From: a virus
Reading direction: 5' to 3' (one strand)
Virus record (IMG/VR): IMGVR_UViG_3300022602_000051
Coordinates: 33,957-97,956 of that record
DNA length: 64,000 nt
The notes beneath the pieces were generated by a model. The model worked only from the letters and a program-made list of their open reading frames with translations. It ran no database searches and was not told where the DNA came from. The translations under genes and the position numbers were made by a program. This document shows, in pieces, positions 30,746 through 47,215 of the stretch (its first letter is position 1; every line of letters starts with the position of its first letter).

Positions 30746-30778
30746 ATAATTGACATTACTGTTAGTATTTGATAAAAT
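30743..30778 (+). promoter_or_regulatory. Dual promoter: late TAAATA (30743-48) plus sigma70-type TTGACA-N17-TAAAAT with extended TG
   Basis: TTGACA at 30750-55 and TAAAAT at 30773-78; ATG lies 6 nt downstream with no SD. Confidence 0.7.
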
Positions 30779-30784
30779 AACCCT

Positions 30785-31105
30785 ATGACTCCAGAAGAAC
30801 TGCGTGAACGGGCTATTGAAGCCTACAATCGTGATTTAGCAAAACAAAATATTATAACTGCCATGGAATCACGCATGACAGTAAATTATAATGATGGCGT
30901 ATTCATTGTAACACAAGAACTTATAAGTTTCTTACATGCTTGGCAAGATGAATTAATTTATATGCTTGATGCATATGATGTTCCAATCCAAGTTGATGCG
31001 AACTATTTAAAAAAACTTTGCAAGCAGCGTTGGTGTGAAGTTATGAATGAATTTGCGTTAGAATACGAAGAGTATAAAAAGATTCGTAATGCAAAGCAAC
31101 TCTGA
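30785..31105 (+). CDS. Hypothetical protein, first gene of the glycosyltransferase/radical SAM operon
   Basis: 106-aa ORF overlapping the next gene. Confidence 0.7.
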   Translation: MTPEELRERAIEAYNRDLAKQNIITAMESRMTVNYNDGVFIVTQELISFLHAWQDELIYMLDAYDVPIQVDANYLKKLCKQRWCEVMNEFALEYEEYKKIRNAKQL

Positions 31106-31838
31106 AGGTTGTATCATATTTGCATACAACACAGATACCACTGATTATTTTAGTCAAGCAGTTGCGGCTGCTGATAGGGTTGAACATTACCTAAACATAC
31201 CTACAACTATTTTTACTAATGAATTTAAAACTTGTAAGCACAATATTATTCTTACAGAAACGCCAGAAACTAATTACAAACTTAAAAAACTGTGGCTCAA
31301 TCGAAGCCGAACACGTGCTTTTGAACTTTCACCCTATGATAAGACGCTAATAATTGATAGTGATTACTTTTTATGCACTGATAATCTAAACTATCACTTG
31401 CAAAGTTCTAAACCATTTTTAATAGCAAGTGAAGTTTATGAACCACTTACTGGCAAACGCACAGTCTATAATCTTGGTAAAACACAAATACCTATGATGT
31501 GGGCAACGGTAATGATTTTTGATAAGAGTGATGAAGCACGATGCATATTTGAGTGTGCAAGTTATGCTGAAAAACATTATAATTATTATAGTGATTTTTA
31601 TGGATTTAAACAACATCCAATACGAAACGATTATATCTTTACAATAGCCTGTCATCTTATGGGTGGATATGGCAGCAAGTCATATGCACTACAAAATTAT
31701 CCACTTGTAAATTGTTATGATATGGCATATCATAGTTGGGATAATGACAAATTAGTTTACAAATACGATAGCGGTAAAATCTATGGTAATCGTCTACAAA
31801 ATATGGATTTGCATCTTATGAAAAAGGATCAATTATGA
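31089..31838 (+). CDS. GT-A (GT8-like) glycosyltransferase-like protein
   Basis: AFELSPYDKTLIIDSDY (DxD)...WATVMIF...RNDY. Confidence 0.65.
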   Translation: MQSNSEGCIIFAYNTDTTDYFSQAVAAADRVEHYLNIPTTIFTNEFKTCKHNIILTETPETNYKLKKLWLNRSRTRAFELSPYDKTLIIDSDYFLCTDNLNYHLQSSKPFLIASEVYEPLTGKRTVYNLGKTQIPMMWATVMIFDKSDEARCIFECASYAEKHYNYYSDFYGFKQHPIRNDYIFTIACHLMGGYGSKSYALQNYPLVNCYDMAYHSWDNDKLVYKYDSGKIYGNRLQNMDLHLMKKDQL

Positions 31839-32680
31839 GTCGAGGATTTTTATGCATTGCACAGAATAGCAGCGAAACTGATTACTTGCGCATGGCATAT
31901 CTGCAAGCATTAAGTTGCAAGATAACACAATATGCACATCGCAATAGTTTTAGTGTTATTGTTGACCGTGAAACTGCTGATTGTATTGAGCAAAAACATA
32001 TTGATGTATTTGATAATATCATTGTTTTAAAAGATGACCTTGCGCAAAACAGCAAAGTTAAAATGCAAAATGAGTGCCAGGTTTTTAACTACAGTCCTTA
32101 TAAACAAACAATTAAAACCGAAGCAGATATGCTTTTTACAGCCAATTATGATTCTATTTGGGATCATTGGGCTTTTGACAAGTTCCACTTTTGCACCCAT
32201 GTTTATACATATGATGGACATTTAATCAAAGACCGTAGTCAGCGTCAATTGTTTGATGATAGCCTGTTGCCTGATGTGTATAGTGCTTGGACATACTTTA
32301 CATATAATTTGGAATGTAAAGAATTTTATGATACAATGCGTTTAATTATAGATGATTGGGATTATTATCGTGACAGCTATCTTGTAAATTGTCGCTATGA
32401 TGAACCACGAACCGATGAAGTATATGCGCTTGCTTGTAAAATATTAGATATACCTTATAAAGGAAGCGGTTATGGTTTCTTACATATGAAACCAAAATTA
32501 CAAAGACTTGGATCACATCAGTCATGGGTTGAACAGTTAGATTTAGATATTAATGCAGACTTAAATGTAACTATTGGTGGTTATAGACAAAATAAACCGT
32601 TGCATTATGTAGAAAAAACCTTTGTTACAGACGAACTATTAGACAAATATGAATATGGATTTAAACGAACAAGAGATTAA
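31835..32680 (+). CDS. GT-A glycosyltransferase-like protein (paralogous to the previous gene)
   Basis: SPYKQTIKTEADM (ExD)...YSAWTYF...TDEVYAL...HMKP...LHY. Confidence 0.6.
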   Translation: MSRGFLCIAQNSSETDYLRMAYLQALSCKITQYAHRNSFSVIVDRETADCIEQKHIDVFDNIIVLKDDLAQNSKVKMQNECQVFNYSPYKQTIKTEADMLFTANYDSIWDHWAFDKFHFCTHVYTYDGHLIKDRSQRQLFDDSLLPDVYSAWTYFTYNLECKEFYDTMRLIIDDWDYYRDSYLVNCRYDEPRTDEVYALACKILDIPYKGSGYGFLHMKPKLQRLGSHQSWVEQLDLDINADLNVTIGGYRQNKPLHYVEKTFVTDELLDKYEYGFKRTRD

Positions 32681-32879
32681 AGAATGGTGGGATGAGTTTG
32701 AGCGTGAACTTTGCACAATGGTTAAACCCAATGACCCAAATCCACCACACAAACCAATAATGGAACCACCCAAACCACCATCTTGGAAGCGTGGCAATAC
32801 GTATTATACATTAGCAAATGACCGCCAGTTTCCTGTAGAACCTGATCACCCAAATGCCATAGGCTGGAATTATGACTGA
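32649..32879 (+). CDS. Small Pro-rich hypothetical protein
   Basis: 76-aa ORF filling the gap between the two flanking genes and overlapping both. Confidence 0.55.
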   Translation: MNMDLNEQEIKEWWDEFERELCTMVKPNDPNPPHKPIMEPPKPPSWKRGNTYYTLANDRQFPVEPDHPNAIGWNYD

Positions 32880-33810
32880 ATTAGTTGATATAAGTGAATT
32901 AGATTGTATTTTTTTAAGTTACAAAGAACCAAATGCCGATAGCAATTGGGCATATTTGCGCTCTTTTGTGCCGTGGGCAAAGCGTGTGCATGGCATAGAA
33001 GGCAGTGATGCAGCACATAAAGCTGCTGCCGCTGCAAGTGACACAGAACGCTTTATTCTTATTGATGGAGATAATCAACCAGACCCAGAGTTTTTTAATC
33101 AGCAATTGCGTATTAATCAAACAAATGAACGTTGCGTGTTTCGTTGGCGAGCCAGAAATATTATCAATGGATTATGTTATGGGAATGGTGGAATCAGCAG
33201 TTGGACAAAAACTTTTGTAAACAATATGCGAACACATGAAGCCAGCGAAGGCGATGCTGACACAGTTGTAGAGTTTTGTTTTGATGACAACTATTGGGCA
33301 ATGCATGATGTATGGAGCACTACATTGCCAAACTCATCACCACAACAAGCATGGCAAGCTGGATTCCGTGAAGGTGTAAAATTATGTCTTGATCGTGGTC
33401 GTCGCCCCACACCAGAAGAATTTGAAAGTGCAACTTGGGTAGGCAACAGAACTAATTTGGTAATTTGGGCAACGGTTGGCAGTGATGTTGAGTTTGGTAA
33501 ATGGGCGATAATGGGTGCTCGTCAAGGTGCCTATATGACCATGTTTGTTGATGAATGGGATTATCGCGAAGTTCGTGATTTTAAAAAACTTGATGACTTG
33601 TGGCAAAATACAACGGATGATGGATTACAAAGAAGCGAAAATTATGCAAATATATTGCGTAAACGTCTAAATCTTGATATAATTAGCATGTCGCCTGAAC
33701 AAAGTTCTTGGTATAAAAAGCATCAACGAGCATACCAAAACATTGATATCATGCTTCCAGAAAGAGATGTAGGAAATGTCATTAGAAGCGCGGCTAGACA
33801 ACTCTGGTGA
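32872..33810 (+). CDS. GT-A glycosyltransferase-like protein
   Basis: IFLSYKEPNA...RVHGIEGSDAAHKAAA...FILIDGDN (DxD)...YGNGG...AGFREG. Confidence 0.65.
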   Translation: MTELVDISELDCIFLSYKEPNADSNWAYLRSFVPWAKRVHGIEGSDAAHKAAAAASDTERFILIDGDNQPDPEFFNQQLRINQTNERCVFRWRARNIINGLCYGNGGISSWTKTFVNNMRTHEASEGDADTVVEFCFDDNYWAMHDVWSTTLPNSSPQQAWQAGFREGVKLCLDRGRRPTPEEFESATWVGNRTNLVIWATVGSDVEFGKWAIMGARQGAYMTMFVDEWDYREVRDFKKLDDLWQNTTDDGLQRSENYANILRKRLNLDIISMSPEQSSWYKKHQRAYQNIDIMLPERDVGNVIRSAARQLW

Positions 33811-35212
33811 TGTTGCCACAGTAAACAGTGATAAAACTCTTAAAAGTGATTTTTTATCGGCTGCTGAGCAAATGCAACAGAAACTTGGACATGCTCTTTG
33901 CCTTGCAAAGTGGCAGCAAACCAGTTTACATTTAACAACTGGTCATACAAATAGTTGCTATCACCCACCACTACACAGGATTAATGCAGATGATCTCACC
34001 GATAACCCCAGTGCGCTACACAACACTGAACACAAAAAGGCACAAAGGCAGAAGATGCTACGGGGCGAGCAACCAGAAGAATGTAGTTATTGCTGGCGAG
34101 TCGAAGCAACAGGAAACCTTAGTGACCGTCACTACCGAAGCGGCGAAACATGGGCTGCCGAGCATTACGATACAATTATTGCTCGCGACCCTACTACTTG
34201 GAATGTTAATCCTGCTTATGTAGAAGTAAATTTTAGCAATGTATGTAATCTACAGTGCAGCTATTGTTCACCGCAGTTTAGCAGTGCCTGGCAAAAGGAA
34301 ATAAATGAATACGGTGCTTATCCTACTTCTAATCTCCACAATAGCCCTACTTACTTTAGGGGTGATCGTAAACCTATACCAAATCGCGAAGATAATCCTT
34401 ATGTTGATGCGTTCTGGCGATGGTGGCCCGAACTCTACCCAAACCTAAAACATTTTCGCATGACAGGCGGAGAACCGCTATTAGATAAAAATACCTATCG
34501 TGTATTTGATTATGTTTTGGATAATCCTAAAAAAGATTTGCATCTTAACGTCACAAGCAACTTTAGCCAAGATGAATATGTGTTTGACAAGTATTTGACT
34601 TATGTAAAACACATGTGTAGAAATGGTGTATTAGAACACTTTATGCAATTTGTTAGTATTGATGGTTACGGTGAGCGTGGTGAATATGGTCGTCATGGTT
34701 TAGATTTTGAACTCATGAAAAGGAATGTAGAACGGTTTTTAACTGAAGTTCCTAGTCGCAATAGCGTTACATTTATTATTACAATGAATGTTCTCAATAT
34801 AACAAGCCTCAAAGAATTGATGCAATGGATACTTGAACTTCGTGCAAAATATAGCACAACATATCAGCGTGTTTGGTTTGATACACCTATCTTGCGTGAA
34901 CCAGCTTGGCAATGTATTGATATACTACCTGAAAGTTATGCATGGTTTTTACAAAATGTCGTGCACTGGATGCAACCAAAAACTGAAACACTAGATACAC
35001 GATTTAATGGATTCAAAGATTATGAAGTTGTAAAACTACAGCGTGTAGTAGATTGGATGCACGAACATCGTCGTGAAGATACTAAAACAATGGCAGATTT
35101 TTATCGTTTCTTTAACGAACATGATGCTCGTCGCAAAACTTATTTTTTGAAAACCTTTCCAGAAATGAGTGATTGGTATAACACTTGCAAATATTGGGCT
35201 GATAATGTATAA
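33776..35212 (+). CDS. Radical SAM protein with N-terminal twitch-like Cys domain (1)
   Basis: CNLQCSYC; TGGEP; N-terminal CLAKW...SCYHP...CSYCW. Confidence 0.9.
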   Translation: MSLEARLDNSGDVATVNSDKTLKSDFLSAAEQMQQKLGHALCLAKWQQTSLHLTTGHTNSCYHPPLHRINADDLTDNPSALHNTEHKKAQRQKMLRGEQPEECSYCWRVEATGNLSDRHYRSGETWAAEHYDTIIARDPTTWNVNPAYVEVNFSNVCNLQCSYCSPQFSSAWQKEINEYGAYPTSNLHNSPTYFRGDRKPIPNREDNPYVDAFWRWWPELYPNLKHFRMTGGEPLLDKNTYRVFDYVLDNPKKDLHLNVTSNFSQDEYVFDKYLTYVKHMCRNGVLEHFMQFVSIDGYGERGEYGRHGLDFELMKRNVERFLTEVPSRNSVTFIITMNVLNITSLKELMQWILELRAKYSTTYQRVWFDTPILREPAWQCIDILPESYAWFLQNVVHWMQPKTETLDTRFNGFKDYEVVKLQRVVDWMHEHRREDTKTMADFYRFFNEHDARRKTYFLKTFPEMSDWYNTCKYWADNV

Positions 35213-36233
35213 ATTTCCTATTTGGCATTGGCATATTGAAAATAGCAGTATATGTAGTTTGCGATGCCCACGCTGTCCACGTGTGGAAATACCCGATACT
35301 TTAGTCCAAACAAGTCTAAGTTTAGATTTTTTTAAAAAAAATTTTAACCCTGGCTTTTTGCAAGAGGTTTGGCAAATTAGTTTCTGTGGCGATGATGGTG
35401 ATCCAATTTACGGTAAAGAATTTTTAGAAATAATTGAATATCTTAAAATTACTAAACCTAATTTAAGTCTTCGTATTATTACAAACGGCAGTTATCGTAA
35501 CGAAGCATGGTGGAAAAAACTTGCAGCAAATTTAAATCAATATGATGAAATCCATTTTAGTTTAGATGGATGGGATCAACAAAGCAATGAAAAATATCGC
35601 ATCAATAGTAACTGGGATAGTATTAAAACTGCCGTTAAAACTGTCAGAGAAAATAGTAATGTTATCCTCACTTGGGCTGCTATTGTTTTTAAATATAATC
35701 AATATGATATTATGACGATGAAGGATTTAGCTACTAAATGGAATTTTGATATATTTCAAATTACATACAGCACTAAATTTGGTAGCAAATACTGTAATTA
35801 TAATATTGAAGGCAGTGATGATTTAGAACCCGCTCAACAATATATTGCAAAAGGACATCGTTTTGAACGTCAAATAATAAATCTCACTAATAGAAAATTA
35901 TTAGATAACGGTAAAAATTTAATTAATACAGATTTATATACTAATATTAATCGTGACAGCGATATTATTCCATTATGTAAAATTGGTAACAAGGGTCTTT
36001 ATATAAGCAGTGACGGCTATTTCTATCCTTGTTGTTGGATGGCAAATAGGTATAATCACACTCGTTGGCAAGAGTTTCGACAACCACAATATAATTTGAA
36101 TACAAGAAATATTGGTGATATATTAAAAGATGAAATGTGGGACGATTTTTTTAATAGTTTAAACAATTACGATGAATGTAAAAATAAATGCTGTTCACAA
36201 AATTTTAATAAAGGATACGCAACATCGTGGTAA
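35205..36233 (+). CDS. Radical SAM protein with C-terminal SPASM/twitch domain (2)
   Basis: CSLRCPRC; CGDDGDP; TNG; SLDG; C-terminal PLC...DGYFYPCCW...CKNKCC. Start set to ATG 35205. Confidence 0.9.
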   Translation: MYKFPIWHWHIENSSICSLRCPRCPRVEIPDTLVQTSLSLDFFKKNFNPGFLQEVWQISFCGDDGDPIYGKEFLEIIEYLKITKPNLSLRIITNGSYRNEAWWKKLAANLNQYDEIHFSLDGWDQQSNEKYRINSNWDSIKTAVKTVRENSNVILTWAAIVFKYNQYDIMTMKDLATKWNFDIFQITYSTKFGSKYCNYNIEGSDDLEPAQQYIAKGHRFERQIINLTNRKLLDNGKNLINTDLYTNINRDSDIIPLCKIGNKGLYISSDGYFYPCCWMANRYNHTRWQEFRQPQYNLNTRNIGDILKDEMWDDFFNSLNNYDECKNKCCSQNFNKGYATSW

Positions 36234-37588
36234 CAAGCAAACAACCAGATGAATCATTTTTAAAATATAAAAAACGTGTTCTGGATACCAAAAGTGCATC
36301 ATTCTGTGGTGCAAAGTGGTATAATGCAACTATTTGGTTAGGTAGCGGCCAAACAACAAGTTGCCACCATCCACTTCCACATCAAGTAACTGTGGAACAA
36401 GTATTAGCTAATCCATCGGCATTGCACAATACACCGCAAAAAAAAGAACAGCGTGCGCAAATGCAACGTGGTGAAAGACCCACTGGTTGTGAATATTGTT
36501 GGCGAATTGAAGATAGTAGTTCAACTGCTATAAGTGATCGTCCATATAAAAGTATGATATACAGTGAAGAAGAATTGCATGATGCTTTTGTTCTTCCATC
36601 GGATAGCGATGTAAATCTTCGCACATTGGAGATAGCCTTTGACCGCACTTGTAATTTTGCCTGTTCTTATTGTAATCCTGCTTTTAGCACAACTTGGGTT
36701 CGAGATATTAAGTCTAATGGTCCATATAGTAATCTGGTTAGTGACGGTCGCAATCATTTTACTCATACCCATGATTCTAGTCAGCTTTATGGTTATAGCG
36801 ATACTAACCCATATGTAGAAGCTTTCTTTAAATGGTGGGAAAGTGATTTGCATAAAACACTACGAGAACTTCGCATTACTGGTGGTGAGCCACTTATGAG
36901 TGGGCACACTTGGAAACTGCTCGAATGGTTTAAAGAAAATCGTGGCAAAAGCCAAACAAAGTTAGCCATCAACAGTAATCTTGGCATGGATAGTAAAAAA
37001 TTAAATGAATTTATAGAAGCTATTCGTGATATTCCTCACGTGGAAATTTATACAAGTTGTGAAGCATTTGGAAATCAAGCAGAGTATATTCGCAATGGTT
37101 TAAATTATAAGCAATGGTTTGATAATTTAGTTACACTTCATAGCAGCGGTGTAATTAAACAATTGCATGTTATGGCAACTATTAATGGCTTGTGCTTATT
37201 GTCACTTCCTCAATTTTTAAAACACATGATGGATTTTAAAATAGGTCGAGGTAAAAATTCATTAACCTTTACTCTTAATATTTTACGATTTCCTAGTTTT
37301 CAAAGCCCTACAGTTATGCCAGTTGAGGTTCGTGAAAAATGCGCAACTGAACTTGAAAGTTTTTTAAATAGTTATGAACACGGTAATTATTTGCATCAGA
37401 TGGAAATTGAACATGTTAAGCGATTGATTGAATATCTTCGCAAAGTTGAAACCCCACACGAAAACGCAAGTGAACTGGGTATATTAGAAAAAGATTTTAA
37501 AAATTTTTATGAACAATATGATGCTCGTCGTAATAAAAATTTTATAGAAACATTTGCAGATTTGGAAGATTGGTATCGTGGTTTATAA
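36227..37588 (+). CDS. Radical SAM protein with N-terminal twitch-like domain (3)
   Basis: CNFACSYC; TGGEP; N-terminal FCGAKW...SCHHP...CEYCW. Confidence 0.9.
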   Translation: MVTSKQPDESFLKYKKRVLDTKSASFCGAKWYNATIWLGSGQTTSCHHPLPHQVTVEQVLANPSALHNTPQKKEQRAQMQRGERPTGCEYCWRIEDSSSTAISDRPYKSMIYSEEELHDAFVLPSDSDVNLRTLEIAFDRTCNFACSYCNPAFSTTWVRDIKSNGPYSNLVSDGRNHFTHTHDSSQLYGYSDTNPYVEAFFKWWESDLHKTLRELRITGGEPLMSGHTWKLLEWFKENRGKSQTKLAINSNLGMDSKKLNEFIEAIRDIPHVEIYTSCEAFGNQAEYIRNGLNYKQWFDNLVTLHSSGVIKQLHVMATINGLCLLSLPQFLKHMMDFKIGRGKNSLTFTLNILRFPSFQSPTVMPVEVREKCATELESFLNSYEHGNYLHQMEIEHVKRLIEYLRKVETPHENASELGILEKDFKNFYEQYDARRNKNFIETFADLEDWYRGL

Positions 37589-38849
37589 TTATAATGGCAA
37601 GGAACCAATAAAAATTTCTGTTGAAGACTTAAATGATAAGCATAAAAAACTTATATTTGAAAACAAAACATTTTGTATGTATCCGTGGATTCATCTACAT
37701 GCTTTTCCAACAGGTGAAGCATACCCTTGCTGTAACACAGAAATGAGTGAAACAGTAGGCAACACACGTTATGATACACTTGAAGAAATATGGAACAGCG
37801 CACCAATGCGCGATGTTCGTAACAAAATGTTAGCTGGTGAAAAGATTACAGGCTGCGCACGTTGTTATGAACAAGAGGATAACGGTTTTTTTAGTATGCG
37901 CACGAGTGCCAATAAACACTTTGGTCATCATATTGCACTGACCGATAATCCTAACCCACCAATGAAGATGATTTATTGGGATATTCGTTTCTCTAATCTT
38001 TGCAATCTTCGTTGCCGCAGTTGTGGTCATATTTTTAGCAGTAATTGGTATGATGACCAGGTTAAACTTGCTGGTCCTGAATGGGCAAGTCGCAATACTC
38101 GCATCAACTTTGCTGGCCGTAGTGAAGATGATATTTGGGAACAATTAGAACCACAAATTGATAACCTTGAACAAGTATATTTTGCTGGCGGTGAACCACT
38201 TATTATGGAAGAACATTATCGTCTTCTTAATGAGTTGATTAAGCGTGGTCGCACGGATGTTCGATTAATTTACAACACTAACTTTAATCAATTATCCTAT
38301 AAAAAAACAAATGTGTTAGAATTGTGGCGAGAATTTGATTCGGTAAGCGTGGGCGCAAGTCTTGATGCTATGGGCGCACATGCTGAATATATCCGCAAAG
38401 GAACTAAGTGGTCACAAGTTGAACAAAACCGTGAACAGATGCTGCAAATTTGTCCAAAGGTTGATTTTTATATAAGTCCAACCCTAAGCATTATGAACGC
38501 ACTGCATCTGCCACAGTTTCACCGTGAATGGGTCAATCGTGGTTTCTTAAAACCACAAGATTTAAATATTAACATACTTCAAGACCCTCCGCATTATCGC
38601 ATTGATGCACTACCACACCAATATAAAGTGGATATACAAGAAGCATACGCAGAACATATTGATTGGCTTAAACCGCAAGATCACCTTAAACGAGCAACAA
38701 CTGGATTTGAAAGTGCTATTAAATTCATGATGGGCGATGACAAGTCACATCTATTGCAGCAATTCAAAGAAAAAACCGCACAGTTAGATGCAATTAGGAA
38801 TGAAAATATATTGGATGCTATTCCTGAATTAGGATGCTTATATGAATAA
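37578..38849 (+). CDS. Radical SAM protein with N-terminal twitch-like domain (4)
   Basis: FCMYPW...PCC...CARCY; CNLRCRSC; AGGEP. GTG 37578 is the probable start. Confidence 0.9.
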   Translation: MVYNYNGKEPIKISVEDLNDKHKKLIFENKTFCMYPWIHLHAFPTGEAYPCCNTEMSETVGNTRYDTLEEIWNSAPMRDVRNKMLAGEKITGCARCYEQEDNGFFSMRTSANKHFGHHIALTDNPNPPMKMIYWDIRFSNLCNLRCRSCGHIFSSNWYDDQVKLAGPEWASRNTRINFAGRSEDDIWEQLEPQIDNLEQVYFAGGEPLIMEEHYRLLNELIKRGRTDVRLIYNTNFNQLSYKKTNVLELWREFDSVSVGASLDAMGAHAEYIRKGTKWSQVEQNREQMLQICPKVDFYISPTLSIMNALHLPQFHREWVNRGFLKPQDLNINILQDPPHYRIDALPHQYKVDIQEAYAEHIDWLKPQDHLKRATTGFESAIKFMMGDDKSHLLQQFKEKTAQLDAIRNENILDAIPELGCLYE

Positions 38850-40041
38850 TATTTGTATCTTGCCATGGATTAGTATAGAAACAACACCACTTGGTCAAAT
38901 GCGTGTGTGTTGTCTTGCAAATGAAAATATTAGTGATAGTGATGGCAATGATTTGCTAATTGAAAATACCACATTATCATCTGCATTTAACAGTCAATAT
39001 ATGATTGACCTTCGCAAATCTTTTTTGAATGGTGAGAAGCCATCTGTATGCAATCGTTGTTGGAGTGAAGAAGAAAGCGGCAGAACAAGCAAACGCCAAA
39101 ACAGTTATAATCGCCTTGGTAATCTTGTACGACATATTGATTTTAGCAATCCAGATAGCGGTGATTTAATTTTCCTTGATTTAAAATTAGGCAATATCTG
39201 TAATCTTAAGTGTCGCATATGCGGAAGCTTTAGCAGTTCTAAATGGGCGCAAGAAGAAATTGAAATCAATAAAGAATACCAAAGTGAATATCATAGACCA
39301 GCAAAGGACTTTTTAAGACAAGGACAATGGCCTCGTCAAGTATCCGCTTTCTGGAATGATTTAGATACACTTTTGCCACACATTCGCTATTTGGAATTTA
39401 CAGGCGGCGAACCATTCTTAATCGCAGAACATTTTGATTTCTTGCGCCAAGCTATCAATCTTGGCGTTGCTGAAAATATTGAAATACATTATAATACAAA
39501 TGGCACACAATTTCCTGAACACGCAATAGATATTTGGAAACATTTTAAGCTTGTAGAAATTGCACTAAGCATAGATGACTTAGGCGATAGATTTGAATAT
39601 CAACGCTATGGCGCTAAATGGGATATTGTGCAAACAAACTTACAAAAATTTAGAGAATTGCGCGATAGCAACAAAAATATTGTGCTACAATTATGCTTAA
39701 CTGTAAATGCTTTAAATTTTTATTATATAGATGAAATATTAAATTGGGTTCCACACCAAATGTTCAACTATCATTATCTTAATGTAGTCCATGATCCACC
39801 ACATTTTTGTGTAAAGAATCTTAATGATGCTGCTAAAGAAATGATAACAAGTAAAATTTCACAAGCTAATATACCATCAATATTTGCAGATGAAATAAAG
39901 AATTTATTGCAGTTTATGAATAGTGGCAGTGGCACCGATTGCAAATATCTTATACAAGTATTGCGTGATAGTGATAAATTTCGCAAGCAACATCTTGCAG
40001 ATCACCATCCAGAGTTAGCGGCAGCAATAGGTTATGATTAA
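38842..40041 (+). CDS. Radical SAM protein with N-terminal twitch-like domain (5)
   Basis: ICILPW...VCC...CNRCW; CNLKCRIC; TGGEP; YNTNG. Confidence 0.9.
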   Translation: MNNICILPWISIETTPLGQMRVCCLANENISDSDGNDLLIENTTLSSAFNSQYMIDLRKSFLNGEKPSVCNRCWSEEESGRTSKRQNSYNRLGNLVRHIDFSNPDSGDLIFLDLKLGNICNLKCRICGSFSSSKWAQEEIEINKEYQSEYHRPAKDFLRQGQWPRQVSAFWNDLDTLLPHIRYLEFTGGEPFLIAEHFDFLRQAINLGVAENIEIHYNTNGTQFPEHAIDIWKHFKLVEIALSIDDLGDRFEYQRYGAKWDIVQTNLQKFRELRDSNKNIVLQLCLTVNALNFYYIDEILNWVPHQMFNYHYLNVVHDPPHFCVKNLNDAAKEMITSKISQANIPSIFADEIKNLLQFMNSGSGTDCKYLIQVLRDSDKFRKQHLADHHPELAAAIGYD

Positions 40042-40520
40042 ATTTGTTGTTTTCTTTTAGCCCAATTAGCACGATGTTTCGCTTTTGTTTCTTCGCTTCT
40101 TTTTTGACCTAACATTGATTTTCTAAGTTTTTCTTTTTGTTCTTCGGACATCTTTATTCCTTTACGATTAGAAACTCTGCCTTTGAGAGATTTGCTTTGT
40201 TTCTCTAATGTTTCTTTTGTAGGTTTATATCCACTTGAACCTTCGCCGCCATCTGTTAGATTTAATAATCTACCAGTTCCTATATTTTCTCTGCCGTAAT
40301 ATTCAATTAATAACTTTTCTATAAGAAATGCTTGATTTTCTGTAAGATTCTAATATAATAATTTTATTCTACTTTTATCTTGCGGCGGCGGTATTCTTTT
40401 ATCTTTTCTAAACGCTCTTCTGCCTTTTCCCTTGCCGATATAATAAAAAGAAGAATCGGATTTTCTTATGTAGGCATAAACATAATAAATTTGCGAGGAT
40501 TGCTCGTTATTAAATACCAT
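40038..40520 (-). pseudogene. Free-standing GIY-YIG homing endonuclease with NUMOD3-like tail, interrupted by an in-frame TAG (codon 57, 40350-40352)
   Basis: YYVYAY...YYIGKGKGRR. The frame continues past the TAG as NLTENQAFLIEKLLIEYYGRENIGTGRLLNLTDGGEG...MSEEQKEKLRKSMLGQKRSEETKAKH to TAA at 40038. Confidence 0.85.
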
Positions 40521-40583
40521 TGCTGTGTTCCTTTTCAACATAGAGTAGGCGGGATTGCAGTCCGTGGCCTACACTATTATTTA
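40511..40583. promoter_or_regulatory. Structured endonuclease leader between two face-to-face TAAATA late promoter cores
   Basis: TAAATA on + at 40511-16 and on - at 40578-83; hairpin ATAG-A-GTAGGC...GCCTAC-A-CTAT at 40540-40577. Confidence 0.6.
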
Positions 40584-40591
40584 GGCAAATA

Positions 40592-41908
40592 ATGACAGAA
40601 AATAATAAAGAACAATTTATGGACTTCTGCCTAGCCCCATTTACGCACACATTTATTTCTCCTGTCGGTGAAAGACGCCTATGCTGCGCCTCTCGTGAAC
40701 CTGCGCAGAACTTCAAGCAGTATATTGACACTGCTGGCGGAGATGGACAATTTAATCCGCTTACATTAAAGGATTGGTGGAATGGTGAACATATTAGAGA
40801 AATTAGAAAGCAATGGTTGGCTGGTGAAGTTCCTTCTGCATGTGAAGTCTGTGATAAAAAGTTACTTAATACCTCTGTTTATCGCGATTACTTTAGTCAC
40901 TTGTTTGGTCACCTTAGAGATGATATACAGGCTAATACGGATGCTGATGGTTACACAACTTTAGAGCCTATATCGTGGGATTATCGTTACAGTAATGTCT
41001 GTAACTTTAAGTGTCGCATGTGTGGCGATATGTTAAGCAGCGCGTGGGAAGTTGAAGTTCGCAAAAATTCGATGGTTGATTTGTCTAATCCTAAGAATCA
41101 TTGGATGCAACCAAAGAACCGTCATGCTATCCGCGATTTTACACGTGATGTTGTAATACCAGAGTTTCGCCAAGCTATAGAAAACAAATCGGTGCGCGAA
41201 ATCTATTGGGTTGGTGGAGAACCACTGCTTTATGATGAACACTGGACATACATGCGCCGTATTATTGAATTAGGTTATGCAGATCAAGTTCGTGTGCGAT
41301 ACAATACAAATTTAAGTTATTGCAAGGATGGCAGTGGTAGCCTATGGGAACTCCTAAATAACTTCCCACACTGGGAAATTTGTGCAAGCTTGGATGCAAC
41401 GGGAGCAATTGGTGAATATATTAGAACTGGTCTTGACTATAATAGTTTTTTGTTCAATTTTAGAGAAGGCATTGCACACGCAAGACATAATCGTCAGATG
41501 CGCCTTGACTTTACTCTTACTACCGTTGGTCTTTTTGATGTTGAGAATATCATCGCCCTCGCTGATGAACTGAATGTTGAATTGCTAAGCAAGGTAGTGT
41601 TTGCTTTCTCGCCTGATATACTATTAAGTCCACTTGCTATGCCTTGTGATATACTGCATCCTCTTATTGAAGATATACAAAGCCGTATTAAACCACGCAT
41701 TACTCGTCGCACACAAAGCCTATGGGATGTATTAGAACACTTAAAAACTCGTCCTACATTTGCTGAACAATGGCCAGAAACATATGCAGCAGAAGCTGTA
41801 AAAGGAAAGGCGCATCTTTTAAAATTGGAATCTATCCGCAAAGATGCTAAAATAAAAATAAGTGATATCCTTACTGGTGATGTCTTAACTTGGTGGAATA
41901 GTATATGA
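40592..41908 (+). CDS. Radical SAM protein with N-terminal twitch-like domain (6)
   Basis: FCLAPF...LCC...CEVC; CNFKCRMC; VGGEP; YNTN. Confidence 0.9.
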   Translation: MTENNKEQFMDFCLAPFTHTFISPVGERRLCCASREPAQNFKQYIDTAGGDGQFNPLTLKDWWNGEHIREIRKQWLAGEVPSACEVCDKKLLNTSVYRDYFSHLFGHLRDDIQANTDADGYTTLEPISWDYRYSNVCNFKCRMCGDMLSSAWEVEVRKNSMVDLSNPKNHWMQPKNRHAIRDFTRDVVIPEFRQAIENKSVREIYWVGGEPLLYDEHWTYMRRIIELGYADQVRVRYNTNLSYCKDGSGSLWELLNNFPHWEICASLDATGAIGEYIRTGLDYNSFLFNFREGIAHARHNRQMRLDFTLTTVGLFDVENIIALADELNVELLSKVVFAFSPDILLSPLAMPCDILHPLIEDIQSRIKPRITRRTQSLWDVLEHLKTRPTFAEQWPETYAAEAVKGKAHLLKLESIRKDAKIKISDILTGDVLTWWNSI

Positions 41909-43014
41909 CTGTTGTAATGACCCTTCGCAATCCGCTTGATAAAACGGATGTGTTTCCTGTATTCATTGAACCCAATGATACACAACTTGCTCGTGATTGG
42001 GAAGCAGCATTATCTCTTGAAATACAGCGCAATGCTATTTTAGAAAAGAATTATTGCTGGCATGGCTGGCCAAATGGTGCAAGAAATTTAGAATATCTTA
42101 CGAGTGAATTAAGTCGCCATGCACTTAACATTTGGAAATATAATGAACTTGGTATTTGGCAATCAGCAGGATTAAAGAATGTTGTTATCGAAACAGTTTA
42201 CACACCAGAAACTGTTATGTTGCCATTGACTGATGAACGCAATAGCGGTGGTCCTAATCATGATGTAATGAATATTGTTCACAATCATTTTGAGCATCTG
42301 CAAGGAACTGTTGAAAATCTAAGTCTTTACTATAAACTTGCTCCGCCTAATATCAAATATAGCATCAGGCAATTAAACAATCTTTGCCATGAAATTGAAA
42401 CTCTTTGTTTAAGTTTGCGTAAACAAAAACACAATCCAGATTGGGTGCGCCCATCGCAAATTACAACATTTCTTAATGCAAAGAGATATAATTTAACCGA
42501 AGAACATCGTCGTGGATTTTTAACCAATGGTCATGATAGAAAATTTGGTCATGTTTATATGCACTGGACACAAATTGGCAAGACGCTTATGGAAGTATTC
42601 CGTGACGAAGGTGCTCCACATCTTGACCAAGCTACATGCGATGTTATTACTCATTTGCAATATTATAGTGGTGAATTTGATATTGAATGGGGTCGTGATG
42701 TTTGTTATGGAACGCATGATTGGCACACTAAAGAACAAGACCAATTCTACGAATGGTTGCGTCGTGAAGGATATGATCCACACGATACATCACTAAGTCT
42801 TGGTTACCTTGAAATTGGAAAGATTGATTTGGAAATGAGTTTTGGCACAAGCGATGTTGCCGAGATTTGGAAAATCATGGGCGATCATCTTGACATTTAT
42901 AGTCTTGAAGTAGATGGTAACCATGCTATCTATGATTATTCTTGGGCAGACGAGGATCATGAACAGCGGCAAATCAATTATTTGATGCCAGGTTATAATA
43001 GTCACAATGTTTGA
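41905..43014 (+). CDS. Hypothetical protein in the radical SAM operon
   Basis: 369-aa ORF coupled (ATGA) to rSAM 6; His-rich motifs HNHFEHL and CHEIE. Confidence 0.75.
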   Translation: MTVVMTLRNPLDKTDVFPVFIEPNDTQLARDWEAALSLEIQRNAILEKNYCWHGWPNGARNLEYLTSELSRHALNIWKYNELGIWQSAGLKNVVIETVYTPETVMLPLTDERNSGGPNHDVMNIVHNHFEHLQGTVENLSLYYKLAPPNIKYSIRQLNNLCHEIETLCLSLRKQKHNPDWVRPSQITTFLNAKRYNLTEEHRRGFLTNGHDRKFGHVYMHWTQIGKTLMEVFRDEGAPHLDQATCDVITHLQYYSGEFDIEWGRDVCYGTHDWHTKEQDQFYEWLRREGYDPHDTSLSLGYLEIGKIDLEMSFGTSDVAEIWKIMGDHLDIYSLEVDGNHAIYDYSWADEDHEQRQINYLMPGYNSHNV

Positions 43015-45277
43015 TATCTATTGGTATGACTATGATGATTGTAGTGATATTAAGCACTTAATAAAAAGTGCTGTAGAGAGTAGTCGCACTGAATATGTAT
43101 GGCTTGCACATAAAGCAGTAGACTATTCTAATTTTAATTGGCGGTGGATGCCTAACTATCATCAAAAGCATTTCTATCATGCGTGGCCAAGTCATAATAA
43201 TCCTAATTGTTTGACTACATGGCTTATACCTGTTGATAAGGCGTTTGAAGATACCCAAAAAGTATTTCATGATAATATTTTACCAATTATAAAACCGCCT
43301 GTATGGAATACAAGTGACCAAGTTTTGTATGATGGTTTTAATTGGAACTGGTATCCTGATGTATGGGATTGGGATAAGCAGCATCATTTCGCAATGGGCG
43401 GCACCACTCAATTATCTTATACAAGCGTTGGTAATGGTAGTGAAATAAAATATCATATTTCCGATTTGCAGTTTAAAGCTATAGGTATTTGGTATGACAC
43501 TGACAACATTGAAAGTTCACCCTATGAATGGACTTGGATTGCTGACAATCGTATAGATTACACGGATTTTAACTGGAGTTGGTTGCCTGATAGATGGGAT
43601 GCAGATGCAATACATGAATTTTGTATGTATAATTCACAGCATCTTTCATATACTCGTTTGGTGAATAAAAACAATAACGGCAAACGTGTATTTCATCATT
43701 CATACTTGCAATTCAAACCTAATGTTACACCCCTTATATATTGGCAAGATTTCTTTGATGAATTATCACTTGATAATCTTCGGCAACTTGCGCAAGGCAA
43801 TGAATGGACTTGGATAGCCGATAAGCGAATTGATTATAGCGATTGGAATTTTGATTGGCTTCCTGATGGATGGGATACAAAGTATATTCATTGCTTTACT
43901 ATGGAAAACAAAGACCAATTAAGCTATACCTGGTTAGTGCATCGTGATGCAATTACTGATTTCGTAGATTACAAATATCATCAATCGCAATTAAAATTCA
44001 AAGATGCACATGCTGACATGTGTTTGTTAAACACTAATTCTTTTAGTAATATTATTCACAAAGATTTCCAAGTGCGACTTATAACAACTATGGAAGAAGC
44101 AATTAAGTCCGCCGTAGCAAAAAGTAAGCGCGAATGGTTATGGATTTTTAGTGATGTTTGTGAATATAATGATTTTGATTGGACATGGTTGCCAGACCTT
44201 GATCAACGCGACCAAATACATTGTTGGCCAAGCGGCACGTGTGAAAAGGGCGATACATTTTTAATACATGTTCCCAGTTTTAATCCACATAAACTAAAGT
44301 TTAATTTTGAACATGAACCAGTTATTCGCAAACGCTGGCCAGTTGTTAGCATTACGCACGATAGTTTAGCAGAAGAACTTAATGCTACTCCGCGTCTAAG
44401 TTCAATTTATACAATCTATTCCTATACAGGCTTTACAGATTATCCAGATGTTTGTTTATGGGATAAGCGACCAGTTGTTAGCCTGAATCGCAGCAATAGC
44501 AGTTGCCTTGTTCCGCGTGATTGCATTGTGCAAAAAGAAATATATGAATATCCACACTTGTTACGGCATCCGCAATACGGATTTGATATTCCAATTGATA
44601 TTATTTTTATTCATAATAATGAAAACTGTGTAGCGCAAAACTGGGTGCGATTAAAAGCACTATGTCAACATGCAAAAATATTAAGCGGTATAAATGGCAG
44701 ATTAAAAGCATATCAAAGTGCTGCAAGCATAAGTGAATCGCCGTGGTTTATAGCTGTGTTTGCGAAGTGCTATGTAAAAAATGATTTAGCAAATATAAAA
44801 TGGCAACCAGATTATTGGCAAGAACCTAAACATTATATTTTTCACAATCATAATTTAAACAATGATTTGATTTATGGTCATATGGCACCAATTGCTTATA
44901 ACAAAAAGCTGATGTTGGGCAATGAAGGCGGTCTTGATATGACGCTTGCTCAAAAACACACCACTGTTCCAATAGTTTTAAGTGAAACTGATTTATCGCC
45001 TGATTATTTCTTAATTTGGCGCACGGCATTTCGTGAAGTTATCAAAATTCTTCACTATAATAATAGCAATCCAAGTGTTGAGAATGAATATAGACTACAT
45101 AATTGGTTTAATGTAAGTCGTGGTGTGAATTGTGATTGGCAAATAAAAGCCGCGCATGATGCAAAAAATTATTATTACGCTTGTAATGGCAATAATGATG
45201 CACTTTTGCTTACCAGTGAATGGGATTGGCTTTCAGCACTTTTCAATAGTCTTTATAAGGATGAAATTACTGTTTGA
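43007..45277 (+). CDS. Trp-rich repeat protein with C-terminal GT-A-like domain
   Basis: Five W-x-W...DY.DF.W.W.PD...IH repeats; the C-terminus (IDIIFIH..E...GINGRLKAYQSAA...YGH...TAFRE) parallels ORF 32872. Confidence 0.65.
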   Translation: MFDIYWYDYDDCSDIKHLIKSAVESSRTEYVWLAHKAVDYSNFNWRWMPNYHQKHFYHAWPSHNNPNCLTTWLIPVDKAFEDTQKVFHDNILPIIKPPVWNTSDQVLYDGFNWNWYPDVWDWDKQHHFAMGGTTQLSYTSVGNGSEIKYHISDLQFKAIGIWYDTDNIESSPYEWTWIADNRIDYTDFNWSWLPDRWDADAIHEFCMYNSQHLSYTRLVNKNNNGKRVFHHSYLQFKPNVTPLIYWQDFFDELSLDNLRQLAQGNEWTWIADKRIDYSDWNFDWLPDGWDTKYIHCFTMENKDQLSYTWLVHRDAITDFVDYKYHQSQLKFKDAHADMCLLNTNSFSNIIHKDFQVRLITTMEEAIKSAVAKSKREWLWIFSDVCEYNDFDWTWLPDLDQRDQIHCWPSGTCEKGDTFLIHVPSFNPHKLKFNFEHEPVIRKRWPVVSITHDSLAEELNATPRLSSIYTIYSYTGFTDYPDVCLWDKRPVVSLNRSNSSCLVPRDCIVQKEIYEYPHLLRHPQYGFDIPIDIIFIHNNENCVAQNWVRLKALCQHAKILSGINGRLKAYQSAASISESPWFIAVFAKCYVKNDLANIKWQPDYWQEPKHYIFHNHNLNNDLIYGHMAPIAYNKKLMLGNEGGLDMTLAQKHTTVPIVLSETDLSPDYFLIWRTAFREVIKILHYNNSNPSVENEYRLHNWFNVSRGVNCDWQIKAAHDAKNYYYACNGNNDALLLTSEWDWLSALFNSLYKDEITV

Positions 45278-46365
45278 ATAACTGTTTCAACTTGTTCATC
45301 AGTTAAATGCCAGTGGCTTGGTAAACTTATTACACGTTCGGCATTAGTAATATATTCTGCTTGCGGACACAATTGATAACCATAACATTTAACAAATGGT
45401 TCACGGTTCAACGGCCTTGCATAATGACTACTATATTCTATATCAGCAGCCTTTAGTGCTGCTTTCACTCTATCTTGACGCAGTGGTGCTAAACTAAATG
45501 AATAATAATTCCATGTAGCCCAATCTTTTCGCATTGGTATATCTAATGCTTCGGTATGTTTAATAAACGCATTATAATAGCGTTCACAAATTGCAAGCTT
45601 GCGTGGCAGATGATCTTCATAGTAAGGAACTTTGGCAACAAGTGTAGCCGCTTGTGTTGATAACATGCGACAATTAAGACCAGGTAATTCTATTTGACCA
45701 TAAGGTCCGCCTTCTATCTTACCCATAGTGCATGTGCCACTCAATATAGATGGATGAATTGTTTTACTCACAACAGCACCGCCGCCACTGCCACCAAGAT
45801 TTTTAAGTGGATTAAAGCTTAAACAAATAGCATCAGCGATTGTTTGGCCATACGCTTTTGTGCATAATCCAAAACTATGTGCAGCATCAATAATCCATTT
45901 GATATTATGGTCATCACACCATTTGCGAACACGAGATAAGTCAACGCCTTGACCATATAAATCAACAGTGATAAGAGTGCTAATCTCTCCACCATATTTG
46001 GTATACATTTCATCGAGCAGTTCAATGTCCAATAACCAACTGTTATCAATATCAACAAAGGTTGGGATACAACCTACTGCCATAACTGCTTGAGCGGTAG
46101 CTGCATATGTTAGTGCTGGCATTAGCACACGCGAACCACGCTTTGTATAAAGAGCCATTAGTGCAGCAATAAGTGAACTGGTTCCACTGTTAGTGAGTTC
46201 AACATGCGCATCATTATATTTTACACGAATATATCGTGCAACAGCATCGTGTGCTTCGCCGCTATAAAATTGTCCGCTTTTAAAAGCAGATTGCATACCA
46301 CCAAGTATGTAACTTTTACAATCTTCGTATTGTTCTTTAAGATTGTAATAATTTATTGATGCCAT
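45253..46365 (-). CDS. DegT/DnrJ/EryC1/StrS-family PLP-dependent sugar aminotransferase
   Basis: NSGTSSL, PALTYAATA, VDLYGQ, IDAAHSFG, SFNPLKNLGG (PLP lysine), ISLP. Confidence 0.9.
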   Translation of the reverse strand: MASINYYNLKEQYEDCKSYILGGMQSAFKSGQFYSGEAHDAVARYIRVKYNDAHVELTNSGTSSLIAALMALYTKRGSRVLMPALTYAATAQAVMAVGCIPTFVDIDNSWLLDIELLDEMYTKYGGEISTLITVDLYGQGVDLSRVRKWCDDHNIKWIIDAAHSFGLCTKAYGQTIADAICLSFNPLKNLGGSGGGAVVSKTIHPSILSGTCTMGKIEGGPYGQIELPGLNCRMLSTQAATLVAKVPYYEDHLPRKLAICERYYNAFIKHTEALDIPMRKDWATWNYYSFSLAPLRQDRVKAALKAADIEYSSHYARPLNREPFVKCYGYQLCPQAEYITNAERVISLPSHWHLTDEQVETVIQTVISSL

Positions 46366-47215
46366 CTTCTAAACTTGTCTTTGGCGTGTAACCAAGGAAT
46401 TGAACTGCACGTCGAGTATTAAGCGAACCACGCTTTGGCATGTTAAATGGAATACCATCGCCATACAAGATTTTGCTTTGGGATTTGGTCCAATCTTTTA
46501 TAATTGTAATAGCATCTTGTAGCGTCCGTGCGCTACCATAACTTACATTAGCAATAAAATTATGTGTATCAAGCACTGCAGCATTTGCAATAGCCTGTGC
46601 TACATCTTCAACATATGTAAAGTCCAACGTGGCTTTAGGATCATCTACATGGATCGTTTCTTGTTTTAAGGCAGCACTTATCCATTTAGAAATAACACGA
46701 TTGCCATCATCGCGGTTTCCATACACCGCCGTGGGGCGAATTATTACCCATTTATTTGCAATAATTCTAACCAATTCTTCGCACATCTTTTTAGCCCTAC
46801 CATAATCATTGATAGGTTTAAGTGGCGCATCTTCTACAATTTCTCCACTCCAATCGCCATAGACCATACTACTTGAAATATAAACCATCTTGGCGTTAGG
46901 ATAAGTTGTCAATAGATGAATAGTGCTTTGCACTGTATTGCGCCAAGCAGCAAGATTGTTTTTATCAAATGTAGCTTGATTTGGTTCGCCAGCAAGATGA
47001 ACAATTACATCTACATCTTGTACAATTGTGCTACTGCAATCAGCATTGATCCATTCATCATAACCAAACTCCATATATCGCCCACGAGCAAGATATAAAT
47101 CAGTATTGATATAACGCAAATCATCAATAACAGTGACACGATGACCACTATCAATAAGACGCTTTACAACATGATGACCAATAAATCCGTAACCACCTGT
47201 CACTAATATATGCAT
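46337..47215 (-). CDS. NAD-dependent nucleotide-sugar epimerase/dehydratase
   Basis: ILVTGGYGFIG, HLAG, SSSMVYG, YGRAK (YxxxK), DFTYVEDVA. Start set to ATG 47215. Confidence 0.9.
   Translation of the reverse strand: MHILVTGGYGFIGHHVVKRLIDSGHRVTVIDDLRYINTDLYLARGRYMEFGYDEWINADCSSTIVQDVDVIVHLAGEPNQATFDKNNLAAWRNTVQSTIHLLTTYPNAKMVYISSSMVYGDWSGEIVEDAPLKPINDYGRAKKMCEELVRIIANKWVIIRPTAVYGNRDDGNRVISKWISAALKQETIHVDDPKATLDFTYVEDVAQAIANAAVLDTHNFIANVSYGSARTLQDAITIIKDWTKSQSKILYGDGIPFNMPKRGSLNTRRAVQFLGYTPKTSLEDGINKLLQS

Follow-up and report, generated by a model that had tools for sequence, protein, structure and literature searches.

A fibre-linked operon of glycosyltransferase-like proteins and N-terminal twitch radical SAM enzymes in T4-like jumbo phages

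Gene content and layout of the operon

We analyzed a 64,000-nucleotide window (bases 33957–97956 of the 97,956-bp IMG/VR contig IMGVR_UViG_3300022602_000051; CheckV completeness, 29%), in which an operon of glycosyltransferase (GT)-like and radical S-adenosylmethionine (SAM) genes follows tail fibre genes and runs into a convergent pair encoding a DegT-family aminotransferase and a short-chain dehydrogenase/reductase (SDR). All coordinates below are positions in this window. The closest complete relatives of the contig measure 337–357 kb, carry direct terminal repeats and encode a major capsid protein of the T4 Gp23 type (E ~1e-99), which identifies the source DNA as part of a T4-like jumbo phage genome. 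Near-identical DNA was also present in metagenomes that several independent studies had obtained from lakes and fresh water. A megablast search of isolated phages with the whole region returned zero matches, and a protein search of isolated phages returned distant matches only, to Vibrio phages K566 and K567 and to the Ralstonia phage RsoM2USA. The features of the locus are as follows.

28201–29409, plus strand: tail fibre gene, the immediate upstream context (PHROG tail fibre families, E 1e-18); syntenic in most related loci
29837–30745, plus strand: g29837, fibre-like, Cys-free and rich in Ser, Thr, Asn, Tyr and Gly; candidate acceptor, present in 74 of 80 related loci
30750–30778, plus strand: best sigma-70-like promoter, TTGACA-17-TAAAAT with TG (11 of 12 matches), in the only intergenic gap preceding the operon
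30785–31105, plus strand: g30785, short conserved gene that opens the operon (64 of 80 loci, ~31% identity)
31089–31838, plus strand: A, GT8-like GT-A protein with an invariant DxD (D90/D92)
31835–32680, plus strand: B, GT8-like paralogue of A with invariant E96/D98
32649–32879, plus strand: 76-codon open reading frame (ORF) bridging B and C and overlapping both
32872–33810, plus strand: C, GT-A N-terminal domain with an invariant DGD (D65/D67) and a helical C-terminal domain
33776–35212, plus strand: rS1, NF033640 radical SAM protein of the rS1/rS3 subfamily (342.9 bits)
35169–36233, plus strand: rS2, classical radical SAM protein with a C-terminal SPASM domain, accessory (PF04055, 37.9 bits; PF13186, 23.1 bits)
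36227–37588, plus strand: rS3, NF033640 radical SAM protein (312.8 bits), syntenic
37554–38849, plus strand: rS4, NF033640 radical SAM protein (411.8 bits)
38842–40041, plus strand: rS5, NF033640 radical SAM protein (349.6 bits)
40038–40541, minus strand: GIY-YIG/NUMOD3 homing-endonuclease remnant between rS5 and rS6, in ORF pieces
40592–41908, plus strand: rS6, NF033640 radical SAM protein (272.2 bits)
41905–43014, plus strand: D, conserved protein modelled as a cyclophilin-like barrel with a four-helix insertion bearing invariant His and Glu residues
43007–45277, plus strand: E, Trp-rich repeat modules and a C-like domain (residues 530–693) lacking the DxD
45253–46365, minus strand: DegT/DnrJ/EryC1 sugar aminotransferase (PF01041, 186.8 bits; cut-off, 19.8)
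46337–47215, minus strand: extended SDR of the epimerase/oxidoreductase type (PF01370, 123.7 bits)

The first-pass annotation had described a plus-strand operon of about 14.5 kb, with overlapping genes, directly behind the tail module, and the ORF map agrees: the operon spans 30785–45277 (14.5 kb), neighbouring genes overlap by 4–44 nt, and a tail fibre gene lies upstream. Its sole true gap (40041–40592, 550 nt) is occupied by the minus-strand GIY-YIG remnant, and the 192-nt interval between B and C by the 76-codon ORF, whose product is Pro-rich in the middle and recurs in the same place, with 53–87% amino-acid identity, in the four closest relatives (L007–L010). The convergent 25-nt overlap was likewise found, E ending at 45277 and DegT at 45253, and DegT and SDR overlap by 29 nt. 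The motifs reported as intact are so, with CxxxCxxC in all six radical SAM proteins, a lysine in the context SFNPLK expected to bind pyridoxal phosphate (PLP) in DegT, and YxxxK in the SDR, for which the proposed start at 47215 corresponds to Met32, the probable true start.

No 19-residue window in the operon proteins reaches a Kyte–Doolittle value of 1.6, that is, none has a typical membrane span, and the products are all predicted to be soluble; no flippase, polymerase, exporter or bactoprenol transferase was seen in the operon. The proteins g30785, A, B, C, D and E gave no matches to Pfam, PHROGs or NCBIfam. The sigma-70-like promoter is only suggestive, as the promoter scan overall was not above chance. 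The T4 late-promoter octamer, TATAAATA, occurs 0 times in the window versus ~8.7 occurrences expected from shuffles, despite the T4-type capsid family.

Radical SAM enzymes and sugar-active proteins

We found six genes matching PF04055 (Pfam) in the operon, which bears out the earlier count of six radical SAM enzymes with their cluster-binding cysteines in place. Five of them (rS1, rS3, rS4, rS5 and rS6) are full-length members of the NCBIfam family NF033640 (272–412 bits; curated cut-off, 170 bits). This family, N_Twi_rSAM or "twitch domain-containing radical SAM protein", comprises thousands of members and has no assigned reaction. Invariant among the five paralogues are C157, C161 and C164 of the CxxxCxxC motif and four further cysteines, C42, C61, C103 and C106 (rS1 numbering), in an auxiliary domain N-terminal to the SAM core, where the Pfam SPASM model falls on residues 41–105 of rS4 and 13–88 of rS6. 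The paralogues form two groups, rS1 with rS3, and rS4 with rS5 and rS6. The sixth enzyme, rS2, did not match NF033640; it exceeds the gathering scores of both PF04055 (29.5 bits) and PF13186 (21.5 bits), and its SAM-cluster motif is CSLRCPRC (C29/C33/C36). The enzymes had been likened to BtrN, DesII and NeoN, a kinship that we do not retain for five of the six, which belong to a separate family with the auxiliary domain at the N-terminus.

Homologues of rS4 are numerous (7570 proteins at E ≤ 1e-10 among 8000 scored), and the top-ranking ones are all close phage orthologues. Among PDB sequences, the nearest to the radical SAM proteins were marginal (E ~2e-3; BlsE, viperin, GDGT-MAS and MoaA), and no close solved structure was found for the radical SAM core; BlsE, viperin and MoaA, the weak nearest cores, all act on nucleotide-linked small molecules. 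A literature search for "N-terminal twitch" radical SAM enzymes found none, and the papers on "twitch domain-containing radical SAM" proteins concern other enzymes, as far as their titles and abstracts tell. BtrN reportedly uses a twitch auxiliary cluster. The pairs BtrN/BtrS and DesI/DesII resemble the present operon in combining a DegT-family aminotransferase with a radical SAM enzyme that acts on a sugar or cyclitol, but the operon differs from both in its N-terminal rather than C-terminal twitch domain, its five paralogues, its GT-like proteins, its fibre context and the lack of any equivalog match. BtrN/BtrS is the nearest mechanistic precedent for a twitch radical SAM enzyme working with a DegT-family enzyme, with no family relationship implied.

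Bacterial genomes carry related enzymes. A prokaryote scan with one genome per species yielded 76 loci, the nine best of which are misbinned phage contigs with the whole module. The bacterial homologues (35–40% identity) lie on long contigs beside polysaccharide genes: a Crocinitomicaceae contig has neighbours encoding an SDR, a GT4, a GDSL-like protein, PhyH-type oxygenases, a Wzt-type ABC exporter and a methyltransferase; in Chryseobacterium the neighbours are an SDR, a GDSL-like protein, a GT2 and UDP-glucose dehydrogenase; and a Synechococcus isolate has a GT2. At least one O-antigen/capsule-type neighbour was present in 20 of 46 bacterial-type loci in a crude BLAST census without a background control. 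In more distant phage relatives, 5–6 kb separate D from E and encode a carbamoyltransferase of the NodU/CmcH type, an APS-kinase-like protein and a pair of DUF6071/GDSL-like proteins. BLAST detected no homology between the phage DUF6071 proteins and the bacterial GDSL-like neighbour. Because the bacterial homologues occur in O-antigen/capsule-type loci and relatives encode the carbamoyltransferase, a sugar-tailoring role of the operon is likely.

As a separate observation, many contigs of one Elusimicrobia bin (L121, L123–L127, L130, L133, L134, L137, L138, L143 and L153) hold arrays of up to seven tandem N-terminal twitch radical SAM paralogues and none of the tested polysaccharide markers; these arrays are either a different family context or misbinned virus.

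Four proteins, A, B, C and E, had been called GT-like, a description that profile and fold comparisons support, although none reaches any Pfam, PHROG or NCBIfam threshold. Since family matches were lacking, we built orthologue alignments (36 orthologues each for A, B, C and D). The A and B families are paralogous (hhalign probability 99.4%, E 1.4e-21), and the B profile matched the GT8 enzyme glycogenin-1 (E 0.0024) over the N-terminal 100 residues, which span the DxD region and the nucleotide-binding half. Neither A nor B matched PF01501 (GT8), or any Pfam family at E ≤ 0.01, and the profiles of A, C and D gave nothing useful against PDB sequences. C is the most conserved of the aligned proteins outside the radical SAM set (67% mean column identity), and its AlphaFold model (mean predicted local distance difference test score, pLDDT, 84.7) contains an N-terminal GT-A domain whose best Foldseek match was 2p6w, the PBCV-1 capsid glycosyltransferase A64R (E 2.8e-3). 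In a VIA exhaustive structural search, the top 50 matches to C were all GT-A glycosyltransferases or nucleotidyltransferases (Z 6.5–9.1, residues 4–155), with B4GALNT1 at Z 9.1 (root-mean-square deviation 3.4, 142 residues). C is thus modelled with a GT-A fold, which by itself is no proof of transferase activity. Residues 530–693 of E are homologous to C (hhalign of the C alignment versus E: probability 94%, E 1.5e-7), and the Trp-rich repeats at its N-terminus matched only viral clusters in the Atlas, from phages only.

The model of D is of high confidence (pLDDT 91.7), and a Foldseek search of the PDB with it gave zero matches; the VIA search returned cyclophilins (Z 8–10, 130–140 residues aligned). 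H126, E130, H162, E163 and E165 of D are invariant and lie on adjacent helices of the four-helix insertion. Judging from the model, this His/Glu cluster may bind a metal, in which case D would be an enzyme and not a chaperone.

The convergent arm adds two enzymes of sugar metabolism. The PF01041 score of DegT and its PLP-lysine context uphold the aminotransferase call, whereas none of the equivalog models (PseC, LegC, DesI, WecE and ArnB) was reached, the best being PseC (126.6 versus 423.5 bits) and DesI giving 76 versus 650 bits. The SDR carries the motifs TGGYGFIG, SSS and YGRAK. Nucleoside diphosphate (NDP)-hexose 4,6-dehydratases have a Thr-Asp-Glu active-site signature; the phage enzyme has SSSMVYG at that place and scored 81 versus 365 bits against the 4,6-dehydratase model (RmlB/LegB type). 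Since the signature is missing, the SDR looks like an epimerase or oxidoreductase, so that only the first half of the label "epimerase/dehydratase" is kept, and the supply of an amino sugar by a dehydratase followed by DegT, as first envisaged, is not borne out.

Conservation and variation in related phages

By a pattern scan, more than 567 viral contigs encode an rS1 orthologue (~60% identity), and 80 of these loci were fetched. In essentially all 80, the genes stand in the order fibre, g29837, g30785, A, B, C, rS1, rS3, rS4, rS5, rS6, D, the exceptions being contig ends and occasional extra radical SAM paralogues. Independent assortment of the genes among relatives, which the first-pass annotation had named as the outcome that would speak against a common pathway, is therefore not what we observed for the core. 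The initial counts for E, DegT and SDR were low because the fetched loci were limited to 10-kb flanks; in all five long relatives (four of them complete genomes of 337–357 kb), E faces the DegT–SDR pair, with g48543, g48841 and a DUF2201 gene following downstream; matches to thyA and DHFR were confined to the two closest of these relatives. The complete relatives each encode ~6–17 NF033640 genes above the cut-off (7–21 matches at E ≤ 0.001), compared with none above the cut-off in 14 control genomes.

Against this fixed order, two elements stand out as insertions. The rS2 gene is present in 2 of the 80 loci only, and in lake run X4 the read depth over 35156–36269 is 5–17 versus ~100 in the flanks, with full depth in X2 and X3. 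The dominant X4 population thus nearly lacks rS2, an entire enzyme gene within the operon whose presence is polymorphic. The endonuclease remnant is an insertion polymorphism too, as position 40037 is followed directly by 40637/40643 in contigs of lake runs X2, X3 and X5. In the endonuclease-free allele an ATG directly follows the rS5 stop, so the ancestral start of rS6 is probably Met10 (~40619), and the first nine codons as called are probably derived from the insertion. Given the rarity of rS2, the depth drop in X4 and the endonuclease-free junctions in three runs, both elements are insertions into an ancestral five-radical-SAM operon. Of the six-enzyme pathway originally proposed, five enzymes thus belong to the conserved core, and rS2 is accessory.

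The E/DegT arm diversifies, since DegT is 25–43% identical to its counterparts in the long relatives (L097–L101), where its flanking genes are 50–86% identical, and E varies from 510 to 943 aa among relatives. The position of DegT is kept throughout; these identities suggest that the gene has been replaced or is diverging fast, and hence that the sugars differ between phages.

The operon always lies behind fibre genes in the related loci, and g29837 always directly precedes it. The latter protein had no family match; it has a conserved N-terminus (SDYN..VN.LWG..GYGQ), shared with the fibre protein encoded at 28201 and with the RsoM2USA gene that precedes the corresponding module, and a motif ARYFFN.GG. 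RsoM2USA (MG752970) is a cultured Ralstonia phage of 344 kb with a Gp23-type capsid, and its ORFs 348–355 form a reduced module with the same order: A (28% identity), B (32%), an extra gene, C (43%), one rS1/rS3-type radical SAM enzyme (34–35%) and a C-like gene (36%). As in the present locus, A, B, C, the radical SAM gene and the C-like gene stand behind a fibre-like gene, but there is one radical SAM gene only and no adjacent D, E or DegT. The RsoM2USA module lies just downstream of ORF356 and ORF361, both of which are virion proteins by mass spectrometry (PMC8504454). The genes of the module are annotated as hypothetical, and that paper mentions neither radical SAM enzymes nor glycosyltransferases (PMC8504454).

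Two further features of the structural region were noted. Between 25320 and 28176, two DUF6065-like genes and two PF13759 2-oxoglutarate-Fe(II) oxygenase genes are interleaved with fibre genes upstream of the operon, and their products are a second possible virion-modifying set. A single ORF of 4622 codons (6369–20237) in the structural module may correspond to RsoM2USA ORF361, a virion protein of more than 288 kDa at the equivalent upstream position.

Operons of broadly similar content have been described in marine phages. T4-like marine phages carry cassettes of GT8 and radical SAM genes beside tail fibres, described at the annotation level as a "host recognition cluster" (PMC7029224), and one T4-like marine viral genome has 12 radical SAM genes (PMC5332604). 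The statement that no characterized phage pathway has such a composition therefore stands as regards characterization, whereas the composition itself has been described by annotation (PMC7029224, PMC5332604). The clusters of pelagimyophages and cyanomyophages resemble the present operon in coming from T4-like phages and in bringing together glycosyltransferase genes, mostly of GT8, with radical SAM cassettes beside fibres. They are described as variable cassettes and read as host O-chain modification, whereas we find a strictly syntenic core in a large freshwater jumbo clade, with a DegT/SDR arm and five distinct NF033640 orthologue lines fixed in one operon.

Virus-encoded glycosylation of virions is established for the PBCV-1 capsid (A64R), mimivirus fibrils and mycobacteriophage capsids and tails. 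These systems use soluble GT-A transferases of their own, as the phages studied here may do, and mimivirus also a DegT-type aminotransferase; to our knowledge, none of these characterized systems includes radical SAM enzymes.

Acceptor, proposed pathway and alternatives

We read this locus, with an even chance of being right, as the local copy of a cytoplasmic operon for sugar building and radical tailoring that is linked to fibre genes and widely conserved in T4-like jumbo phages. Of the unusual-glycan pathway suggested by the first-pass annotation, sugar building and tailoring remain the best-supported reading, without the dehydratase supply step and without kinship to BtrN, DesII and NeoN. 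The four complete relatives have no PF00483 sugar-1-phosphate nucleotidyltransferase, so host NDP-sugars must be the input. From a host NDP-hexose, the SDR would oxidize or epimerize and DegT would aminate, and A, B and C would transfer sugars to a phage-made acceptor, most likely the adjacent fibre-like protein or the fibres, with E as a possible non-catalytic partner. Each of the five N-terminal twitch enzymes would abstract hydrogen from a sugar C–H, a putative N-terminal auxiliary [4Fe-4S] cluster serving as an electron sink or substrate anchor, and the outcomes may be oxidation, epimerization, dehydration or cross-linking at distinct positions. A ketone made in this way could also become the substrate of DegT, just as BtrN supplies BtrS in the butirosin pathway. 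Product diversity between strains could come from rS2, from the carbamoyltransferase, SGNH-like proteins and P-loop kinase of relatives, and from the fast-diverging DegT and E. As a bolder extension, which we consider possible though doubtful, the five lines may carry out serial undescribed radical reactions on a glycan of the host-recognition apparatus, or directly on the fibre-like protein, in a jumbo-phage clade of very high abundance.

A virion acceptor is favoured because the operon always follows fibre genes and g29837 and because the RsoM2USA module follows genes for virion proteins; it is plausible but unproven. Several points weigh against the reading as a whole. Gene position is the sole link to the fibres; A, B, C and E fall below every curated GT family threshold; the GT-A fold modelled for C is common to nucleotidyltransferases too; and the cyclophilin-like fold of D could indicate a protein substrate. 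In the census without a background control, 26 of 46 bacterial-type loci had none of the tested polysaccharide markers, and the literature holds no characterized product, acceptor or radical SAM reaction for any member. Moreover, the lipid-linked lipopolysaccharide (LPS) core, on the inner side of the membrane, is also a substrate of soluble GT8 enzymes.

This last point still allows a host-envelope target, in which LPS or capsule precursors would be altered at the cytoplasmic face, leading to superinfection exclusion or effects resembling serotype conversion. Such a function has been argued for the GT8 genes beside pelagimyophage tail fibres (PMC7029224). The bacterial homologues of the N-terminal twitch enzymes, in O-antigen/capsule-type loci with Wzt exporters, are consistent with it, as is the soluble or peripheral nature of LPS-core GT8 enzymes. 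However, the operon encodes neither membrane proteins nor a flippase, polymerase or bactoprenol transferase, its coupling to the fibre-like gene is strict across the 80 loci and RsoM2USA, and a late conversion of the envelope would be of little gain to a lytic jumbo phage. We consider envelope remodelling unlikely, if the least unlikely of the alternatives to sugar building and tailoring on a phage-made acceptor.

Alternatively, the radical SAM enzymes might mature a virion protein directly, by cross-linking or epimerizing side chains of the fibre-like protein, with the GT-like proteins acting separately. Twitch and SPASM radical SAM enzymes are often peptide-acting, which together with the cyclophilin-like barrel of D agrees with this scheme, and the Atlas entry "tSAM_targ_Cxxx_rpt" (PF27846), half of it viral, may indicate that some SAM enzymes have protein targets. 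A Cys-repeat protein was considered as a target on account of that entry and dropped: the match is weak (template modelling score, 0.31), we found no literature on it, and because neither the contig nor the complete relative G001 encodes a Cys-repeat protein the candidate was set aside for this clade. Furthermore, g29837 is Cys-free, no leader-peptide feature or feature like the recognition element of ribosomally synthesized and post-translationally modified peptides (RiPPs) was seen, the weak sequence neighbours are small-molecule radical SAM enzymes rather than RiPP maturases above noise, and the bacterial context is one of polysaccharide loci. Direct protein maturation thus appears quite improbable.

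Hypermodification of phage DNA, with a sugar or amino-sugar adduct on bases for restriction evasion, is more doubtful again. All enzymes would be cytoplasmic, the convergent arm runs into thyA and DHFR, and the nearest solved radical SAM cores are nucleotide-acting; thymidine hypermodification pathways reportedly use PLP and radical SAM enzymes, which also counts in its favour. But the ThyA–DHFR pair looks like ordinary dTMP synthesis, and every relative has the operon within its fibre module rather than its replication module. General Pfam and NCBIfam scans of the operon genes, with no targeted search run, listed no DNA kinase, transglycosylase or base-hydroxymethylase, and a glycan product would accord better with the GT-A/GT8 folds and with the O-antigen-type surroundings of the bacterial homologues. 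A soluble secondary metabolite made during infection, for example an aminoglycoside-like one, is the most remote of these explanations, as the antibiotic-sugar-like make-up (a pairing of DegT with a twitch radical SAM enzyme known from BtrS/BtrN, and a carbamoyltransferase reminiscent of TobZ) is accompanied by no scaffold-forming enzyme, exporter or resistance gene in the operon and is tightly coupled to structural genes.

We conclude that the operon most likely represents virus-encoded glycan synthesis with so far unassigned radical chemistry. It places five co-inherited lines of the N-terminal twitch family in one operon, across hundreds of lake and marine phage contigs. The question is directly testable because the cultured phage RsoM2USA carries a version with one radical SAM enzyme. 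If radical tailoring of the host-recognition apparatus does take place, it would constitute a new class of virion maturation chemistry, tuning adsorption or shielding the fibres, with diversity arising through DegT, E and the accessory genes. Identifying the product would assign chemistry to NF033640, a large orphan enzyme family, and could reveal how giant phages modify their host-recognition machinery.

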